Source of the DNA: Methanothrix sp.
GTDB lineage: Archaea; Halobacteriota; Methanosarcinia; Methanotrichales; Methanotrichaceae
Direction of reading: 5' to 3'
DNA: 24,191 nt
Assembly (NCBI GenBank): GCA_037128175.1
Contig: JBAXWY010000044.1
Span: forward strand, 1-24,191
Numbering within the stretch: position 1 is the first letter of the stretch; each line of letters opens with the position of its first letter. The notes below the pieces were generated by a model, which ran no database searches, was not told the DNA's origin, and saw nothing but the letters and a program-made list of their open reading frames with translations. Positions 7,123-13,808 of the stretch are shown one piece after another. The position numbers and the translations under genes are program-made.

Positions 7123-8832
7123 ATGCCCAGAAAACCCACCAACCTGATCTACGGAGTTGACGATGAGCCACCTCTTGCGACTACGCTACTCTTGGGGTTT
7201 CAGCACATTTTCATCTTATCCATTGCCTTCATCTTTCCGGTGGTGATAGTAACTGAAATCGGTGCCTCCCCTGAGGATGCGCAAAACCTCATCTGCATGG
7301 CCATGCTGGCCACAGGTTTCTCCACGGCTTTGCAGGCTTTGAAAAAAGGGCCGGTCGGTTCCGGCTACCTCTGCCCTCTGTTGAACGGCCCGGCCTTTGT
7401 GCCGGCATCGCTAATAGCTGGCAAGGCAGGGGGTCTCGCTCTCATCTTCGGAATGACGGTCGTTGCCGGCATCTTCGAGGCGCTGTTCTCACAGGTGGTA
7501 GGCAGGATGCGCAAGTTCTTCCCGCCGGAGGTGACAGGAACAGTGGTGCTCATGGTGGGGGTGGAGGTGATACCCATCGCCGTTCCCAAGTTCTTTGGGG
7601 TGGACAGTACACATCCTGGGTTTGCAGCACTGCCTTTTCTGGTGGCATTGATCACTCTGGCTGTCACGGCTGGATTCAATGTCTGGGGGAAGGGCAAGAT
7701 GCGGCTCTACTCTCTCTTAATCGGCATGGTGGCGGGCTATGCGCTCTCCTTTGCCACAGGCATATTGACCTTAGACAAGGCCAGGCTGATAATCGACTCT
7801 GCCTTTTTCCGGCTTCCCGAGATGGGCAAATTCGGAATGTCGTTTAGCACAGTCATGCTCGTGCCCTTTGTTGTGGCAGCCTTCTCCTCGGCGCTCAAGA
7901 CCATGGGCGATCTCACCACCTGCCAGAAGATCAACGACGCCGATTGGAAGAGAATCGAGATGCGGTCCATAAGCCGCGGCATGCTGGCCTGCGCGGCAGG
8001 AAACATAACCTCCGGGCTCTTGGGGGCCCTGGGTCAGTCGGTATCTTCGAGCAATATCGGCCTGTCCATCGCGACAGGGGCTACGAGCCGGCGCATCGGA
8101 TATGCGGCAGGAGGCATTCTCATGCTGCTGGCCTTCTTTCCCAAATTGGCCGCCATCTTCGTGATCATGCCCACGCCGGTAATGGGCGCGTCTCTGATTT
8201 TTACGGTTTGCTTCATGATCATGGCTGGAATACAGATCATCATGTCCCGCATGATCGATGCAAGAAAGACCTTCGTGGTGGGGCTCTCCATCATCTTCGG
8301 GCTATCTTTTGATAGCGTACCCGGACTATATGCTAGCGTTGATCCGGTGCTGCGACCTCTGCTGTCGTCGTCTCTGGCACTGGCCACCATCTGCGCCGTG
8401 GTGCTCAATGTCTTCTTCCGCATGGGCATCAGCCAGAAGATGGAGTTTGAGATCGACCCCAGCGTGGATACTTCCGAGAAGATATTTCAGGTCATGGAAA
8501 AACAGGGCGGAACCTGGGGTGCACGACGAGAGGTCATATTCAATGCCATCGCGGCTATAAACGAGCTGCTGGACGCGGCGCCTTTCCTCGATCTGTTGGG
8601 AAAGAAGATCGCCCTGAGCGTTCAGTTCGATGAGTTCAACCTGGATGTTCGAGCCGTCTATGGGGGTAAGCCCTTTGATATTCCTACCACCATGCCCGGC
8701 ATCGACACCATGCATGATGCAGATGCGAGCGCGCTGGCTCTCGCAGCGTTCACCATGAGCAGGTACGTAGATAAGATGAGCTTCTCGACCAAAGACGGCA
8801 AGACCGAGCTGCACATGCACTTTGAGCATTAG
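7123..8832 (+). CDS. NCS2/NAT (xanthine/uracil-type) permease with a C-terminal degenerate RsbW/HATPase-like domain
   Basis: TM1 GFQH, FFPPEVTG, NAT-signature-like SNIGLSIATG, FFPK..A..P..VMG; an extra soluble tail of about 135 aa. Confidence 0.88.
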   Translation: MPRKPTNLIYGVDDEPPLATTLLLGFQHIFILSIAFIFPVVIVTEIGASPEDAQNLICMAMLATGFSTALQALKKGPVGSGYLCPLLNGPAFVPASLIAGKAGGLALIFGMTVVAGIFEALFSQVVGRMRKFFPPEVTGTVVLMVGVEVIPIAVPKFFGVDSTHPGFAALPFLVALITLAVTAGFNVWGKGKMRLYSLLIGMVAGYALSFATGILTLDKARLIIDSAFFRLPEMGKFGMSFSTVMLVPFVVAAFSSALKTMGDLTTCQKINDADWKRIEMRSISRGMLACAAGNITSGLLGALGQSVSSSNIGLSIATGATSRRIGYAAGGILMLLAFFPKLAAIFVIMPTPVMGASLIFTVCFMIMAGIQIIMSRMIDARKTFVVGLSIIFGLSFDSVPGLYASVDPVLRPLLSSSLALATICAVVLNVFFRMGISQKMEFEIDPSVDTSEKIFQVMEKQGGTWGARREVIFNAIAAINELLDAAPFLDLLGKKIALSVQFDEFNLDVRAVYGGKPFDIPTTMPGIDTMHDADASALALAAFTMSRYVDKMSFSTKDGKTELHMHFEH

Positions 8833-8878: not shown

Positions 8879-10460
8879 TCAAACCTTCTTCTGTTCATCT
8901 GCGGGATTCAAGAGCATCAACCGATTGATAGCACTGACCAGGGCCTCCACGGATGCCATGACTATATCCTCGCGGGCCGATTTGGCGCTGACCCTGCGCC
9001 CCCGGTCGTCCTCTACTCCAATCACCACTTCTGCCAGGGCATCAGCCCCGCCGCTTATGGCTTCAATTCTAAAGTCGCAGATGCGAATGGATGTGTCGCA
9101 CTCCAGGAGACCCTGCACGGCGTTAACAGCAGCGTCTACCGGCCCTACGCCGATATGGGCGAGAACTCTTTCTTTGCCCCGCACCAGGGCCCTTACCGTT
9201 GCCGTGGGCGTGATGATGTTGCCGGTCATGACCGAAACCTCCCGGAGCACTACGGCCTGGCTTCCTTTGGCCACCTCTCCGATCACCACGTCGGCAATGG
9301 TCTGAAGATCGATATTAGCGATCTGCTTTCCTTTGTCGCCCAGCTCCTTGACCCTTTCCAGTATCTCCTGGAGCTGCTCCTCAGTGGGCTGGTAGCCTGC
9401 CTCCTCCAGCACTTTGGCCACGGCATGCCGTCCCGTGTGCTTGCCAAGGACTATGCGCCTCTTGTGGCCTACCATCTCCGGGGTCATGATGCCGGGCTCA
9501 AAGGTCTTGCTGTTCTCAATAATTCCGTGGCTGTGAATGCCGCTCTCATGGGAGAAGGCGTTCTCGCCCACGATTGGCGCGGTTATGGGTATCTTAACTT
9601 CGGTGAGCCGCTCTACCATGCGGGCCGTCTCCACCAGGTATTCCGTCTTTATGCTGGTGCGAGCCCCATAAATGGCGTGCAGACTCATGACCGTCTCGGC
9701 CAGGTTGGCGTTGCCGGCCCTCTCGCCCAGACCATTTACGCAGACCTGCACCTCTCGGGCTCCCGCCTCCACTGCCGCCAGGCTGTTGGCTACGGCCAGG
9801 CCGAAGTCATTGTGGCAGTGCACATCGACCACCATATTGACATCATCGCAGATATCCTTGACAAAACGGTAGAAGGCAGAAGGAGCCGCTACTCCCACCG
9901 TGTCAGGGATGTTGATGATATCGCAGTGCACCTCCTGCACTGCCCGGAAGATGCGATGCAAAAACTGCGGCGAGGTGCGGGTGGCATCCATGGCAGAGAA
10001 GAGACATGTTCTGCCGTTGTCCTTGACAAACTGCACCGTCTCCATAGCTCCGGCCACAATCTCGTCGTGGCTCTTCTTAATAGTATGAGCTATCTGGATG
10101 TCGGAGGTGGGAACGAAGACGTGCACCATGCCCACATCGGCATCAAGACAGGCCTGAACATCCTTTTTCACAATGCGGGAGAGGCCGCAGACCTGAGCCC
10201 GGAGGCCCGCCCTGGCTATTTGCCGGACACTGTCAAACTCGCCCTTGGAGGATACGGGAAATCCAGCCTCGATAACATTCACACCGAGTTTATCAAGCTG
10301 CCTGGCGATCTTGAGCTTTTCGTCCTGGGTGAGAGATACGCCCGGAGTCTGCTCGCCATCCCTGAGAGTGGTGTCAAAAATGCAAACTTTTTCATCAACG
10401 AGTGAGCGAACGTCGTAGAAGACGATTCCCCACAGAGCTTTCGTGTGTCGTGTTTGTCAT
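8879..10460 (-). CDS. leuA: 2-isopropylmalate synthase (LeuA; citramalate synthase paralog not excluded), start site non-canonical
   Basis: Frame stays open upstream of the tracked GTG (10282) through [14 protein letters not shown] to an in-frame TGA at 10459-10457; [21 protein letters not shown] and a C-terminal allosteric domain (GPVDA, DIVMAS). The 5-prime coordinate given is the out-of-frame ATG near the TATA box; true start uncertain. Confidence 0.85.
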
Positions 10461-10483
10461 AAGATCAAGCATAGCATGCATAG

Positions 10484-10491
10484 CTATAAAA
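10484..10491 (-). promoter_or_regulatory. TATA box for the leuA transcript
   Basis: TTTTATAG preceded by purine-rich GGCAAAAG (BRE-like), 24 nt upstream of ATG 10460. Confidence 0.6.
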
Positions 10492-10546
10492 CTTTTGCCG
10501 CCCAAGGGGTAGAGATATTTACCCCTTCGTTAAAGAAAGGCCCTCT

Positions 10547-11221
10547 ATGAAACTTGCAATCACTATTATCGCGGTGCTGGCGGCGATATATGTTCTGCCG
10601 GCAATGGGAGAATCGGCACAGTTCTGGTCCGATCAGGCAAATGAGTACTTCATCTCGGGCGACTTTGAAAAATCGGCTGCAAGCTATGACAAGGCCCTGG
10701 AGCAGGAGCCGAACAACACCGTCCTGTGGAATAATAAGGGAAAAGCTCTGGCCAACTTGGGCAGAATTGGGGACGCAATATCCTGTTTCGATAAATCGCT
10801 TGCTATAGACACCTCTAATCCAGAGTCTCTGAATCTGAAAGCAATTGCGTTTTCCCAGGGATTAAATAAATATGGCGAGGCCATCGCCATCTTCGACCAG
10901 ATCCTGCAGGCAAATCCCTCTTATTTTGATGCCTGGATAGGAAAGGGCATGGCTCTGGCTAATGAAGGCAGCCTTTCCGGCTCCCTGGAATGCTTTGAAA
11001 AAGCCACTCAAATCAAGCCTCAAGATCCCACCGCCTGGAATAACGAGGGTGTAGTCCTCCGGCAAATGGAAAGATATCAGGATGCTTTGACCTGCTTCAA
11101 CAAAGCACTCACCATCGACTCTGCCAATGATGCTGCCCTACAGAATCGAGAGTTAACCCTGCAAGACATGGATCAGCAACCTCAGGCCGCTCCGAGCATG
11201 AGCACGCAAGATATGCTGTGA
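10547..11221 (+). CDS. Secreted tetratricopeptide-repeat protein
   Basis: Signal-peptide-like N-terminus; about 5 TPRs (WNNKGKAL, AWIGKGMAL, AWNNEGVVL). Confidence 0.9.
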   Translation: MKLAITIIAVLAAIYVLPAMGESAQFWSDQANEYFISGDFEKSAASYDKALEQEPNNTVLWNNKGKALANLGRIGDAISCFDKSLAIDTSNPESLNLKAIAFSQGLNKYGEAIAIFDQILQANPSYFDAWIGKGMALANEGSLSGSLECFEKATQIKPQDPTAWNNEGVVLRQMERYQDALTCFNKALTIDSANDAALQNRELTLQDMDQQPQAAPSMSTQDML

Positions 11222-11834: not shown

Positions 11835-13808
11835 CTATAATTTTACTGAACTCAGGATTATCTCCACAACCAGGTCATTGTAATCACGATCCTTCAGAGC
11901 ATGGAGATCCTCCCAGCGAAGTTGGCATTTGCTGGAGCCTAAAGGCAGTTTTATGACATGAGATCTCCCATCCCCATTAAGACTGCTGTCCGTGTAATAT
12001 ATATTTCCGTCCTGAGCCTGCAGAGCAAAGACCAGCCTCGTTTTAGCAGGAAAGTCTCCCACATCAAAGCTCTTGCCCACATTCTCCGAAATGGAATCAA
12101 AGATCAGTTTGCTCAGTGGCCCAAAGAGCCCGAAACGATTGTGGTAAGGCGTATTCTTGCTGACCAGCCTGGCCACGACATGGCTGTCCACTGCCAAAAC
12201 AACATCTTCCTTAATGGTGGGCATCACCTCGATCTCCACTACGAGATCTTTGTAGATCTTCTTCTTAAGGCCTAAAGACGTCTCCCAGCGTAGTTCCCAT
12301 TTGTTATAGCCAATGGGAAGCTTGCGCACGTGGCTCAAGAAGTCCGGGTTTTTCACCTGGTCGGTGTAATAGGTGTAACCGTCATCGGTCTCTAGTGCAA
12401 AGGAGATATTTGCGCCGGCAGGGAAGGCCCCCAAATCAATTCCTTTTCCTAAAGGTGTCTCTTCGCGAAGGATCAACCTGTCAACGGGGGAGCTCTGACG
12501 GAATTCTTCCAGTGTGGAGGCAAGTATAATCCTCGGCGTAACAAAGACCCTGCCGTCCTTAGGCATAACAATATCCTCCGTAATGGGACTGATGATCTCC
12601 GTCTCCATTACTACGTCGTCGTAATCCTTTTCCCCTAAACCGTAGCGATCCTCCCAGGAGAACTCCCACTTATAGATCCCGGTCTTGACCTTCTTGACAT
12701 GGTCGCAAGCATCGCTATTCAGGAATTGATCGGTGTAATAGACGTGCCCGTCTGAGGTTTTGAGAGCAAAAATGAGACGGGAGCCGGATGGATATACTCC
12801 CAGATCATAGAGTTTGCCTTTCTCCGAGTCGGAAGCCCGGAAGATCAGCCTTCTCTCGGGAGAATGCAGCCAAATCTCATTCTCCAGGGTGGTGTTCTTC
12901 CCCTTGAAGCGAACGATGACCCGGCCCTGTTTGGGCATGATCAGATCGTCATCCGAGGTAAATTGCACTGCATAAAAAGCGAATATACTGCCGATACCAC
13001 ACTCGCCATAGCCGATCTTAAACCACCCATTCTCACCCCAGTCCACTCCCCAGCTATTCTTGCATATCCAGTATCCTTGGGCATCATTGTAGCCTACGAT
13101 GCAGATGGCATGATCGGCCATATAGCCGCCATAGGCTTCTTTATAAATCCCACCATAATAGTAATAAAAATCCTCATAGACATTCATGCCGGTCATGAGA
13201 GGCCCGCGCGTGACAAGCCACTCCTTGGCCTGTGATGCGCTGAGCAGAGTCTTCCAGCTATCAATTTTGATTATTCTGTTCTCTCTATCCGGGCAGCTTC
13301 TTAATTGATCGCTGTCGTATGGAAAACAGGCCTCATCGGGAATGCCGCTTTGCTGGGCATATACCAGGGCACTGTTGTAGTACCAGCCCCGATTGCAGCA
13401 GTTGCCGCAACCCCGGAAAAATAGATCTGCCTCAGAAAGATCGGGATTGAGATTTGGATTTCGGCGGAAGATCTCTAAATTGGACTCAATGAGGGCGACG
13501 GTAGCAAAGGCAACGCATGAGCCGCACTGCTTTTGGTCTCTTATGGGTGTAGTCCAGTTCTTGCCGGAGACTTGCCTCCAATCCCACTCACCGGGATAGA
13601 TGTAGACTGGCATAGGCTCAAATGTTCGAGCATTCTCCCGGGACAGGAGTTCCTGAATACTCGTTTTCTCATCTTCAGGAACAACGAGACCAAGATACAA
13701 CAGTTTTTCCGGCTTTGCGAGCCGGCTAAGAGATGTCTCTCCAGCCAGCCAGGAGAGGCTCTTTTCGTTGATCATGCTACGTATTTTATTAATTTCGTCT
13801 ATTGCCAC
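11835..13808 (-). CDS. Papain-like C1A cysteine peptidase with three tandem C-terminal DUF4114-like repeats
   Basis: WDWR, RDQKQCGSCVAF (catalytic Cys), DHAICIVGY (His), KNSWG..WGENGW (Asn); three repeats of about 124 aa ending WED....D.DY.D.V. Confidence 0.9.
   Translation of the reverse strand: MAIDEINKIRSMINEKSLSWLAGETSLSRLAKPEKLLYLGLVVPEDEKTSIQELLSRENARTFEPMPVYIYPGEWDWRQVSGKNWTTPIRDQKQCGSCVAFATVALIESNLEIFRRNPNLNPDLSEADLFFRGCGNCCNRGWYYNSALVYAQQSGIPDEACFPYDSDQLRSCPDRENRIIKIDSWKTLLSASQAKEWLVTRGPLMTGMNVYEDFYYYYGGIYKEAYGGYMADHAICIVGYNDAQGYWICKNSWGVDWGENGWFKIGYGECGIGSIFAFYAVQFTSDDDLIMPKQGRVIVRFKGKNTTLENEIWLHSPERRLIFRASDSEKGKLYDLGVYPSGSRLIFALKTSDGHVYYTDQFLNSDACDHVKKVKTGIYKWEFSWEDRYGLGEKDYDDVVMETEIISPITEDIVMPKDGRVFVTPRIILASTLEEFRQSSPVDRLILREETPLGKGIDLGAFPAGANISFALETDDGYTYYTDQVKNPDFLSHVRKLPIGYNKWELRWETSLGLKKKIYKDLVVEIEVMPTIKEDVVLAVDSHVVARLVSKNTPYHNRFGLFGPLSKLIFDSISENVGKSFDVGDFPAKTRLVFALQAQDGNIYYTDSSLNGDGRSHVIKLPLGSSKCQLRWEDLHALKDRDYNDLVVEIILSSVKL

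Follow-up and report, generated by a model that had tools for sequence, protein, structure and literature searches.

The leuA locus and its reading frames

We analysed a 24,191-nucleotide stretch of DNA (the window), whose genus is Methanothrix according to the names of the closest database proteins. A leuA gene lies on its minus strand. The features considered here are as follows, in the direction of transcription:

10485 to 10500, minus strand: promoter recognized in the sequence, with a BRE-like CGGCAAAAG and the TATA box TTTTATA (TTTATA at 10490-10485)
10395 to 10460, minus strand: upstream open reading frame (uORF) of 21 codons plus TGA, in the -1 frame relative to leuA; its ATG 10460 is the proposed true initiation site of LeuA
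10457 to 10459, minus strand: in-frame TGA in the sequence, the upstream limit of the leuA frame
10424 to 10431, minus strand: G-rich element GGGGAATC, ending 2 nt 5' of the shift codon; a weak counterpart of elements that in other lineages are complementary to the 16S rRNA 3' tail
10415 to 10421, minus strand: proposed +1 shift site CTT_CTA_C in the sequence, a conserved site
8879 to 10417, minus strand: leuA coding sequence (2-isopropylmalate synthase), read in +1 from TAC (Tyr) onwards and closed by the stop at 8881-8879
10388 to 10395, minus strand: ATG with an A5 run in the third frame, raised in an earlier sequence-only reading as an indel alternative and judged here to be non-functional
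10349 to 10375, minus strand: DTTLRDGEQ catalytic-site motif in the sequence, 5' of GTG 10282, the earliest canonical start in frame

The product matches NCBIfam NF002085 with 699.6 bits against a cut-off of 517. Its close homologues contain Pfam PF00682 and PF08502. The match to the LeuA/CimA synthase models is full-length and takes in the DTTLRDGEQ region and the C-terminal LeuA_dimer domain. LeuA and CimA are distinguished throughout by source and database names rather than by assays, and NCBIfam scores both as isopropylmalate synthase. The window genome is 99.8% complete and contains no second leuA of the window type.

The leuA frame is open for 27 codons from TGA 10459-10457 to GAC 10375, and none of these is ATG, GTG or TTG; the first in-frame GTG, at 10282, lies 3' of DTTLRDGEQ. 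The sequence-only reading had correctly stated that no such start precedes the motif. Its further claim that CTG 10435 is the sole start-like codon did not stand, as ACG (10445-10443), ATC (10427-10425) and ATT (10381-10379) are also in frame. Its coordinates were all reproduced (TGA 10459-10457, ATG 10460, CTT CTA 10421-10416, GTG 10282). The uORF contains CTT CTA at 10421-10416 and terminates at TGA 10397-10395, which is followed by a second TGA; leuA lies in its +1 frame. The ATG at 10395 and its A5 run (10392-10388) belong to the third frame. The window shows two overlapping reading frames, of which the downstream one is in +1 and has no usable start of its own, a layout conserved in most of the leuA loci compared below. 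Reading CTTC as a single step yields a 37-residue translation across the joint. Public annotations place the start of LeuA at CTG, ATC, ATA or ATT, at positions that differ between taxa; database entries begin with MWGIVFY.. (CTG), MVFYSV.. (ATC), MNKRKTIFDTT (ATA) or MFDTT (ATT).

Authenticity of the sequence

A DNA contig from another sample (run X5) showed 0 differences over 10200-10491. An RNA-library contig (X8) showed 0 differences and 0 gaps over 10200-10447. These comparisons were made at the level of contigs, in which rare variants are dropped and minority forms can hide. The layout is not an assembly error, and the check for an indel at the A5 run suggested by the sequence-only reading found none in either contig. 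The RNA-library contigs end at 10447, 10434 and 10394, and none covers the promoter. These ends are a weak hint that the transcript starts near the uORF ATG, as contigs cannot show ends.

Conservation of the cassette

The strict pattern ATCGNYTTYTAC-N20-80-TTTGAYACNAC has a single match in each of 237 genomes out of 392 in the class, far more than expected by chance; the reversed control pattern has 0 matches. Among the leuA loci of the class found by protein search, 55 of 58 have an ATG-initiated ORF in the -1 frame with NTT and a Leu codon (exceptions: L024, L104, L111). The same layout is present at 34 of 49 leuA loci from other classes of the phylum. The alignment proposed in the sequence-only reading thus revealed a conserved out-of-frame ATG and NTT-Leu site upstream of leuA, in Methanothrix, throughout the class, and in Methanocella-, Methanoregula- and Halobacteria-type genomes.

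Substitutions indicate which frame is read downstream of the site. Over the 13 codons from the Tyr to DTT, variability is highest at the third position of the leuA frame in four of five groups. Values for the three codon positions are 0.90/1.76/2.90 in the genus, 4.4/3.6/7.5 in the rest of the family, 2.0/1.6/3.4 in family f8 and 4.8/4.0/6.1 in families f6, f7 and f2; the exception is family f3 (4.5/3.9/4.1), where the third position is not the highest. Arg codons in this stretch interchange among AGG, CGG, AGA, CGC and CGT in other families. Judged from these substitutions, the stretch between Tyr and DTT evolves as coding sequence in the leuA frame. Upstream of the shift site, the per-position variability gave no clear frame signal; that stretch is short and highly conserved. 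Changes in the GGR ATY sequence 5' of the site are silent in the leuA frame (GGG/GGA, ATC/ATT) while altering the uORF residue (D/N, R/C). This could mean that these codons are read in the leuA frame. Alternatively, a change from GAUC to GAUU preserves anti-SD pairing through a G-U wobble.

Some lineages have canonical starts. Orthologues with such starts begin two to four residues before the aligned aromatic residue, as in MSMNYRNEELRD of L104 and MTYYPDVLRG of L160, and the extension encoded by the uORF is therefore dispensable. Canonical in-frame starts 3' of the site comprise an ATG nine codons before DTT in 10 of 11 g6 loci, a GTG four codons before DTT in family f7, and an ATG eight to nine codons before DTT in families f12, f13 and f22. 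The shift may not be the sole route of expression in lineages with canonical starts.

Proposed shift site, sensor codon and tRNAs

In all leuA cassettes, the P-site codon is CTT, TTT or GTT and is followed by C or T, so that re-pairing one base downstream is possible (CTT_C in the window). Genes for tRNA-Leu(GAG), tRNA-Leu(UAG) and tRNA-Phe(GAA) are present. The 0-frame codon following NTT was CTA in 29, TTA in 38, CTT in 20, CTG in one and TTG in one of 89 unique leuA-type cores. Five of the six Leu codons thus occur at the sensor position, and the core is always an NTT-Leu inside the frame overlap. The generic core locator itself accepted only cores with Leu at this position, and two of its calls, both in canonical-start families (L140, L143), were false; reading of the cassettes by eye revealed no non-Leu case. 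Invariance of Leu is also partly forced. Re-pairing of a G34 tRNA favours a pyrimidine as the skipped base, the base after it is T, and six of the eight codons possible under these conditions encode Leu.

Further observations concern the sensor codon and its surroundings. The +1 codon varies among TAC/TAT, TGC, TTC/TTT, TTA and TGG (Tyr, Cys, Phe, Leu, Trp). In cores where it is TTY, the skipped base was C in 20 of 20, giving CTT (Leu) and never TTT (Phe). Leu is likewise retained where the protein residue changes, with CTG next to a +1 Cys codon in L066 and TTG next to a +1 Trp codon in L159. CTA is the rarest Leu codon of the window genome (6.9 per 1000; 7% of Leu), and in 16 of 25 sampled loci the sensor codon is the least or second least used codon for Leu. 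In some lineages, however, it is a common one (TTA, 23% in L031; CTT, 15-20% in family f12).

In many genomes, the shift would have to take place within the five to seven codons between the leuA-frame stop and the uORF stop. Examples of such overlaps are AGG GAT TGC CTT CTA[stop] and AGG GAT CGC TTT TTA CGG CGA[stop]. The script that delimits the overlap fails where the leuA frame is open far upstream, and these loci (L072, L079, L107, L131, L138, L155, L163, L172, L175) were classified by reading the sequences.

Promoter, upstream element and RNA structure

The TTTATA at 10490-10485 is 24 nt 5' of ATG 10460, and GGCAAAAGTTTTATAG is conserved among relatives in the family. In 32 of 34 family loci, 22-25 nt separate the end of the TATA box from the ATG of the uORF, a spacing that suggests a leaderless or near-leaderless mRNA.

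The G-rich element of the window, GGGGAATC, is a weak counterpart of the GAGGGATC or AGGTGGTC of other lineages, which is complementary to the 16S 3' tail. Pairing was calculated with the 16S 3' end of five relatives (..GGAUCACCUCCU), as the 16S gene of the window genome is not assembled. The duplex energy is -6.7 kcal/mol in the window and has a median of -10.7 kcal/mol over 95 unique cores, against a genome background with a mean of -4.3 and a 5th percentile of -9.1 kcal/mol; 57% of the 95 cores fall below this percentile. Family f11 has AGGTGGTC at the identical 2-nt spacing. The complement is absent in family f9 (-1.8 and -0.2).

No stimulatory RNA structure was detected in 101 nt of the window (z = +0.40), and RNAalifold predicted 0 pairs on 23 sequences of family f3. 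A hand-defined hairpin, ATCGNT/TTTTAC/RNCGAT, has support in f3 only. A leader-peptide transcription attenuator of the leuL type was considered and rejected; CTT CTA are the only such codons present, and terminator or antiterminator hairpins were not found in these same two analyses.

The cimA paralogue and RF03001

A paralogue of leuA is named citramalate synthase (isoleucine pathway) by JGI and in part by NCBI. A homologous cassette is present at 54 of 71 cimA loci from 13 families, and its sensor codon is ATT or ATC (Ile) in all 54 cassettes. With Ile at this position, re-pairing (UUU to UUA) incurs a wobble mismatch. In some cimA genes, a canonical start follows the ATG of the uORF at a distance of 4 nt (ATGAATG in the genus of the window; ATGAGTG in families f9, f19, f21, f30 and f31).

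The sequence-only reading had pointed to a leuA-associated RNA motif from Halobacteria. The corresponding Rfam family, RF03001 (leuA-Halobacteria), has no match in the window: the best score was 12.8 bits against a threshold of 47.9, on the wrong (+) strand, with E = 4.7. A scan of the window region with permissive Rfam thresholds returned nothing meaningful, and nine cassette loci, five of them haloarchaeal, gave no Rfam match at E <= 0.1. Four of five genomic instances of RF03001 examined nevertheless lie within an ATG-initiated uORF in the -1 frame of a leuA-family gene. At its 3' end the motif reads GAA ATT CTC/CTA, with the uORF stop two to three codons further on, and the gene is a cimA-type paralogue (G398:C2:474702). 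RF03001 shares with the window cassette its position upstream of a leuA-family gene within such a uORF; it differs in having a GC-rich hairpin 5' of the site and GAA or ATT in the P site. The motif appears to be a haloarchaeal cassette on the cimA-type gene. It is not mentioned in the main text of PMC5737381.

Proposed mechanism and alternatives

We propose, with a probability of about 70%, that expression of leuA depends on a programmed +1 ribosomal frameshift, which at the same time senses leucine. Frameshifting itself is what we strongly infer from the comparison of sequences. What was observed is the sequence itself, its conservation, the frame-specific substitutions, the codon identities and the lack of indels; the occurrence of the shift, its efficiency and its leucine response are inferred. 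Transcription would start about 24 nt after the TATA box, placing the 5' end of the mRNA at or beside ATG 10460. Ribosomes would initiate there and read 13 codons, until CUU occupies the P site and CUA the A site. When Leu-tRNA is plentiful, CUA would be decoded and termination would follow six codons on, so that only a 21-residue peptide is made. When charged tRNA-Leu is scarce, the A site would stay empty; the peptidyl-tRNA-Leu would slip from CUU to UUC and UAC (Tyr) would be read next. The slipped ribosome would proceed in the leuA frame and produce 2-isopropylmalate synthase with a short, non-conserved N-terminal extension. In most lineages, the purine-rich anti-SD element that ends 2 nt 5' of the shift codon probably makes slippage more efficient; it is weak in the window's genus. 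The cimA paralogue would be controlled likewise, through an Ile sensor codon. The leucine-sensing shift suggested in the sequence-only reading is supported by the conserved cassette and, independently, by the Ile codon of the citramalate-synthase paralogue, and it is still a suggestion.

We also lean, somewhat less firmly, towards a wider reading in which LeuA and CimA are controlled by a phylum-wide family of amino-acid-sensing recoding switches. It would span Methanosarcinia, Methanocellia, Methanomicrobia-type genomes and Halobacteria, with a leaderless ORF of 6-25 codons and a +1 slip at NTT when the next codon, Leu in leuA and Ile in cimA, is starved of charged tRNA. LeuA and CimA would be translated only by slipped ribosomes, and the device would be older than the leuA/cimA duplication.

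Two alternatives accept the sequence as it stands and interpret it differently. LeuA might start at a non-canonical codon of its own frame (CTG 10435, ATC 10427 or ATT 10381), with the uORF encoding a separate leader peptide or small protein. Such starts are used in database entries (CTG, ATC, ATA, ATT), the substitutions seen in the conserved GGR ATY leave the leuA-frame residues unaltered, and family f5 (L111) lacks the uORF and has GAGGAG 6 nt before an in-frame ATC that directly precedes the conserved Tyr. We nevertheless consider this unlikely. The supposed start varies in codon and position among lineages and is often excluded by an in-frame TGA directly before GGG. Initiation at CTG, also raised in the sequence-only reading, fails as a general explanation because this TGA, which precedes GGG ATC in many relatives (L021-23, L028-30, L062, L064-67), sits 3' of the equivalent CTG. 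There is no ATY at this place in f47-type loci (L106, G V V F Y) or in family f9 (R T A F F); CTT and TTT have the proper SD spacing, yet are not near-cognate. The candidate starts would be hidden beneath any ribosome stalled at the sensor codon of the uORF, and a 5'-terminal AUG 24 nt past the TATA box is the expected leaderless start. Moreover, the Leu of leuA and the Ile of cimA after NTT would go unexplained, unless the uORF ribosome makes the enzyme. The other alternative is that the +1 shift is real but constitutive, as the correction of an ancient indel that sets low expression and senses no leucine. All of the structural evidence is equally compatible with it, Leu in the A site is partly forced by re-pairing, and in some lineages the sensor codon is a common one. 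It is rendered quite improbable by the retention of Ile in 54 of 54 cimA cassettes despite poorer re-pairing, by CTT rather than TTT in all 20 cores with a TTY +1 codon, and by Leu being kept while the protein residue changes (CTG/Cys in L066, TTG/Trp in L159). In addition, the enzymes concerned catalyse the first committed steps of the very pathways that lead to these amino acids.

The remaining alternatives question the template. If an A were missing from the A5 run after ATG 10395, ATG AAA AA(A) GTT TGC ATT TTT GAC would give a typical LeuA start; another assembly indel or a pseudogene would have a similar effect, and the assembly of one relative (G012, L263) does have a 1-nt insertion inside DTTLRDGEQ. 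The A5 idea, put forward in the sequence-only reading, fails because the ATG and A-run are unconserved, with AAC GAA in L018/L019, GGT GAA in L016/L017 and AAAGAG in L013/L014 while the frame is kept, and because the independent DNA and RNA-library contigs contain no indel. With the same frame layout in more than 230 genomes, and no other window-type leuA in a nearly complete genome, artefact or decay is scarcely credible. Transcriptional slippage or RNA editing could instead remove one base, allowing a normal ribosome to read through, and the f3 site does lie within a T5 run (CGCTTTTTAC). This too is very improbable: no base occurs more than twice in a row at the window site CGTCTTCTAC, the T-run varies in length from 2 to 6 across lineages while NTT and Leu are constant, and the X8 RNA-library contig equals the DNA across the site, with the proviso that contigs can hide minority forms.

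Comparison with known systems

A close parallel to the proposed leuA shift is bacterial prfB (release factor 2), a programmed +1 frameshift at CUU_UGA_C with an upstream Shine-Dalgarno-like stimulator. Features that leuA would share with prfB are the shortness of the 0-frame ORF, the re-pairing of CUU (or UUU) in the P site one base further on, slow decoding of an A-site codon that reports the end product of the gene, an rRNA-complementary element a few nucleotides upstream and autoregulatory logic. Where prfB has a stop, leuA has a sense codon as the proposed slow codon (Leu; Ile in cimA), which would sense aminoacyl-tRNA instead of release factor. The host is archaeal, the mRNA is probably leaderless and the 0-frame ORF has only 6-25 codons. 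The SD-like spacing is 2 nt if GAUC pairs, and the element is weak in the window's genus. General features of prfB-type frameshifting are reviewed in PMC5009743.

The same review covers Ty1 (CUU_AGG_C) and the 'hungry codon' +1 frameshifting of Gallant. Ty1 differs from leuA in using a constitutively rare tRNA-Arg to fix the ratio of products. Shifting at hungry codons has been investigated as a starvation error, and its natural role is called unclear in PMC5009743; in leuA and cimA it would instead be conserved and serve to regulate biosynthetic genes of the cell. Antizyme (OAZ) is a polyamine-sensing +1 frameshift (PMC8211752), in which, as proposed for leuA, the end product of a pathway governs a +1 shift needed for the regulator or enzyme. 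The antizyme shift is stimulated by high product and has a stop in the A site, whereas the leuA shift would respond to low product.

The sensing logic also resembles leader-peptide attenuation. In the enterobacterial leu operon, leuL contains rare CUA Leu codons. As in leuL, the leader ORF would report Leu-tRNA charging through its translation rate at rare Leu codons and thereby set leuA expression; leaders of the ilv type likewise use Ile codons, as does cimA. Unlike leuL, leuA has no terminator or antiterminator among the structures found, has one or two sensor codons, and would use a frame change by the same ribosome as its readout. To our knowledge, no leader-peptide attenuators are known in Archaea. 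A 2021 review (PMC8211752) gives the fucA1 alpha-L-fucosidase gene of Saccharolobus solfataricus as the only demonstrated cellular frameshift in Archaea. It is likewise an archaeal cellular gene in two frames that is expressed by recoding; it differs from leuA in its -1 shift on A_AAA_AAT, its two long ORFs, its restriction to one species and its lack of known sensor logic. Our literature search found no description of a frameshift or uORF for leuA or cimA in Archaea, and PMC13759103 (GapMind 2026) has matching terms in unrelated contexts.

Significance

If the proposed mechanism is correct, a single A-site sense codon senses the supply of aminoacyl-tRNA and switches on a biosynthetic enzyme by a change of frame. 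A known mechanism would thereby acquire a new regulatory principle, and Archaea would have a counterpart to the leu/ilv attenuation of bacteria. Among archaeal cellular genes, this would be the first conserved case of programmed +1 frameshifting, and shifting at hungry codons would for the first time be seen to serve end-product control in nature. The orphan Rfam motif leuA-Halobacteria would gain a function. The idea is directly testable in the genetically tractable Methanosarcina and Haloferax, for which the Leu/Ile swap between the paralogues is a ready-made experiment.

There are also consequences for annotation. The sensor codon may distinguish LeuA from CimA where homology fails. In hundreds of genomes, the annotated LeuA and CimA either begin at an arbitrarily chosen CTG, ATC, ATA or ATT or are truncated; the canonical ORF of the window, starting at GTG 10282, lacks the catalytic motif.

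The 5' end of leuA

Re-reading of the sequence reproduced all coordinates of the sequence-only reading. leuA encodes 2-isopropylmalate synthase in full length (699.6 bits to NF002085; cut-off 517). The leuA frame contains no ATG, GTG or TTG among the 27 sense codons between an in-frame TGA and the catalytic-site motif DTTLRDGEQ (GAC at 10375, minus strand). The first canonical start in this frame, GTG 10282, lies downstream of the motif. An ATG at 10460, located 24 nt past TTTATA (10490-10485), opens a 21-codon upstream ORF (uORF) that is ended by two stops. As the uORF frame is one base ahead of leuA, leuA lies in its +1 frame.

10459-10457, minus strand: TGA stop in the leuA frame
10421-10416, minus strand: CTT CTA, in the proposed shift site

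We consider it probable (about 0.8) that LeuA is made in this organism by a programmed +1 frameshift. That the shift also senses the tRNA of the pathway's end product, as the sequence-only reading proposed for leucine, is likewise likely, if slightly less so; it is supported by the conservation of the site and by an Ile version in a citramalate synthase paralogue.

The surroundings of leuA include a 569-aa permease-like ORF (7123-8832, plus strand), a divergently transcribed TPR-like protein of 224 aa whose N-terminus is signal-like (10547-11221, plus strand) and a 657-aa ORF whose papain-like Cys-protease signature precedes three similar repeats (11835-13808, minus strand).

Conservation of the leuA cassette

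The cassette consists of a uORF ATG in the -1 frame relative to leuA, the proposed P-site shift codon NTT and a candidate Leu sensor codon. In a protein search of 30 relatives with the 5' ends read, the layout of the window was present in 27 of 28 loci, own locus counted; only L024 departs from it, with TTG and GTG in frame. The cassette is also found in all 20 loci from the family's 15 other genera and in 8/10 loci from further genera of the class, where L104, one of the two exceptions, has an ordinary ATG start (MSMNYRNEELRD..). Of 392 genomes in the class, 237 matched a strict nucleotide pattern once each and none matched the reversed control; the misses of the strict pattern are mostly variants (TAT for TAC, TTC GAT for TTT GAY). 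The nearest database proteins carry the label Methanothrix.

Beyond the class, 49 leuA 5' ends were read from 121 genomes drawn evenly across the phylum. The cassette is present in 34 of these (17 families), including genomes with proteins matching Methanocella paludicola and Methanoregula entries; other carriers are Halobacteria, identified through the Rfam control. The remaining 15, which make up six entire families and one genus of a seventh, lack it and have an ordinary ATG 6-19 codons before DTTLRDGEQ. The device is therefore old and widespread without being universal, and a long N-terminus is unnecessary for LeuA. An out-of-frame ATG with an NTT-Leu site is conserved in the class and beyond; the sequence-only reading had suggested looking for a conserved out-of-frame ATG and CTT-C site.

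One of the 27 loci, that of G012, has an unrelated 1-nt insertion inside the DTTLRDGEQ codons, downstream of the cassette (L263, G012:C3:289780-290120; ..ACC ACT CTT CAG GGA TGG..), which accounts for the odd database protein P0021 and probably reflects either an indel of the assembly or decay of the copy.

Shift site and sensor codon

In many genomes, a leuA-frame stop stands immediately 5' of GGG ATY and the uORF stop 0-3 codons past the Leu codon, leaving only 5-7 codons for the frame change (AGG GAT TGC CTT CTA-stop; AGG GAT CGT TTT TTA-stop; AGG GAT CGC TTT TTA CGG CGA-stop). NTT followed by C or T is the only putative shift-prone spot common to all leuA cassettes; there, a G34 tRNA (Leu-GAG, Phe-GAA, Val-GAC) on NTT could re-pair one base further. 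Downstream, the sequence evolves as a leuA-frame protein: third leuA-frame positions vary most in four of five groups, and the Arg of a Glu-Ser-(Ile/Leu)-Arg conserved in several families is spelled AGG, CGG, AGA, CGC or CGT. Reading CTTC as one step gives a continuous 37-residue stretch from the uORF into LeuA. The uORF-encoded extension comprises 4 to ~25 residues across loci and is dispensable, since ordinary-start orthologues begin 2-4 residues ahead of the aligned aromatic residue.

In all leuA cassettes read, the 0-frame codon after NTT encodes Leu. It is TTA in 38 of 89 unique cores, CTA in 29, CTT in 20, and CTG and TTG in one each; the counting script required a Leu codon, and inspection of the cassette sequences showed no other codon at this place. 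The +1 codon supplies a residue of LeuA and is variable: Tyr, Phe, Cys (L066), Trp (L159) or Leu (L166). In the own genome, no Leu codon is rarer than CTA (6.9 per 1000), the flanking codons CGT and CGA also belong to the five rarest, and genes for tRNA-Leu(GAG) and tRNA-Leu(UAG) were found. In rough local codon samples, the sensor was the rarest or second-rarest Leu codon in 16/25 loci.

The citramalate synthase-like paralogue

The strongest support for the proposed sensing comes from a cimA-type paralogue in the own genome.

G000:C11:63084-64607 (contig 11), plus strand: cimA-type paralogue (L002/L185), 45% identical, 5' end ATGAATGCGTGGGATCGATTTATTTGGTAA

In methanogens, isoleucine synthesis starts with citramalate synthase. 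The paralogue is named D- or (R)-citramalate synthase by JGI and part of NCBI, and the database matches of the window's LeuA are named isopropylmalate synthase only. The paralogue's uORF, in the -1 frame, encodes MNAWDRF-I-W-stop, and ATT (Ile) stands at the place of leuA's Leu; in the window's genus, a gene-frame ATG is also present 4 nt past the uORF ATG. Across the phylum, 54 of 71 cimA-type loci (13 families) carry the cassette (for example MSDCF-I-W*, MRDCF-I-*, MNRRDRF-I-*, MTRRDRF-I-CQ*, MRDRF-I-G*), and the sensor is ATT or ATC in all 54, although the UUU to UUA slip costs a wobble mismatch. Of the 17 without it, 13 start with an ordinary ATG or GTG and four (L225, L255, L256, L260) are without a clear start. 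The gene frame is without a canonical start in genus g22, families f3, f6, f8 and f16, and genus g85 of f12; other lineages have one 4 nt past the uORF ATG (ATGAATG, ATGAGTG), so that a second route to cimA exists in part of the phylum. A third, homocitrate-synthase-like paralogue in the own genome has an ordinary ATG and no cassette.

In nine f3 cimA loci (L204, L207, L210, L211, L215-L219), the uORF starts three codons before ATT ATT with ATG, GTG or CTG (CTG in L216 and L217), overlapping the gene-frame TGA (xTGAGGGAT), and no stop is nearby. In G497 (C1:1599073-1600567), leuA (L166) and a cimA-type gene (L231) are divergent, ~300 bp apart, with one cassette each.

The sequence-only reading had suggested comparison with the leuA-Halobacteria RNA motif (RF03001), but this motif appears to belong to cimA-type genes: it has no match in the window, nor in the cassette loci of five Halobacteria, and occurs elsewhere once in each of those genomes (64-73 bits; L180-L184 in G459, G437, G398, G408 and G494). 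It sits 85-125 nt upstream of a DTTLRDGEQ that belongs to another leuA-family gene, and for the cimA-type paralogue this gene is the best match; no DTTLRDGEQ was found within 500 nt of L184. In 4/5 instances the motif is enclosed by an ATG uORF that runs in the -1 frame relative to its gene (M..DR(G/V)SR..hairpin..AG(R/C)-E-I-L-(R/G)..stop). Its 3' end is GAA ATT CTC/CTA, which, aligned with other cimA cassettes, places ATT (Ile) at the sensor position with a Leu codon directly next, so that either codon may be the sensor there. The main text of the paper introducing these motifs does not mention RF03001 (PMC5737381).

Alternative explanations and prior knowledge

The main rival, in which LeuA starts at a non-canonical codon of its own frame and the uORF regulates separately, is unlikely. 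Several codons could serve: beside the CTG that the sequence-only reading took as the sole near-cognate, ACG, ATC and ATT are present, and public annotations start at CTG, ATC, ATA or ATT, at positions differing by taxon. L111 (G037, family f5) has neither uORF nor canonical leuA start; its in-frame AUC, directly before the conserved Tyr and downstream of GUGAGGAGAUAGUA, may be a true SD-led non-AUG start. A constitutive +1 shift without sensing is slightly less likely still. Leu is partly forced at the sensor position, because pyrimidine plus T gives Leu in 6/8 codons; CTT (Leu), never TTT (Phe), is used in 20/20 cores offering that choice. Leu and Ile codons that match the pathways are expected of an aminoacyl-tRNA sensor, but neither of an unrelated uORF nor of a mere quirk in decoding.

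An error, a pseudogene and slippage during transcription are jointly very improbable. A DNA contig from another sample (run X5) equals the window over 10200-10491 with 0 differences, and an RNA-library contig (run X8) equals it over 10200-10447 with 0 differences and 0 gaps, spanning both CTT CTA and the A5 run; both are assembled contigs, in which minority forms could be hidden. Neither has an indel at 10390-10394, where a missing A had been considered. The own genome (99.8% complete) holds two leuA-family paralogues, 45% and 42% identical, and no second gene of the window's leuA type.

The type of mechanism proposed, a programmed +1 shift, is already known from prfB, Ty1 and antizyme. Our literature search found no paper describing either a uORF or a frameshift for archaeal leuA or cimA. 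According to a 2021 review, fucA1 is the single programmed -1 frameshift reported in Archaea; the review also refers to viral examples and to a suspected case in magnesium chelatase (PMC8211752). In the searched text (300,000 characters) of a 2016 frameshifting review, leuA and isopropylmalate are absent and the natural role of hungry-codon frameshifting is called unclear (PMC5009743). New here would be the use of a +1 shift to link an amino-acid pathway with the charging level of its own tRNA, the paired Leu and Ile versions, and the presence of such a device in Archaea.

Putative stimulatory element, promoter and RNA structure

The 16S rRNA 3' end is ..GGAUCACCUCCU in five relatives. An element 5' of the shift site (GAGGGAUC in most lineages, AGGUGGUC in f11) pairs with it and stops 2 nt before the P codon, resembling the Shine-Dalgarno stimulator of bacterial prfB. 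For the 16 nt upstream, the median duplex energy is -10.7 kcal/mol (95 unique cores); random 16-mers of the own genome average -4.3 kcal/mol, their 5th percentile being -9.1 kcal/mol. The element is weak in the window (GGGGAAUC, -6.7 kcal/mol) and absent in f9, and would therefore be accessory.

Within the family, the promoter sequence GGCAAAAGTTTTATAG is conserved. TATA and ATG are 22-25 nt apart in 32/34 family loci, and 28-31 nt apart in most loci of f3 and f8. The transcript probably starts at or just before the uORF AUG; RNA-library contigs end at 10447 or below, none over the promoter, a weak hint of a start near the AUG.

No conserved RNA structure was found at leuA cassettes, save an f3-specific hairpin around the site, for which f1 and f8 showed no counterpart and which RNAalifold does not recover. 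In f3 (L020-L031, L082-L106), ATCGNT and RNCGAT flank the loop TTTTAC, which would contain the shift site, with a mean of 4.67/6 pairs versus 1.1-2.95 in shifted registers; variants are CGA..TCG and CGC..GCG.
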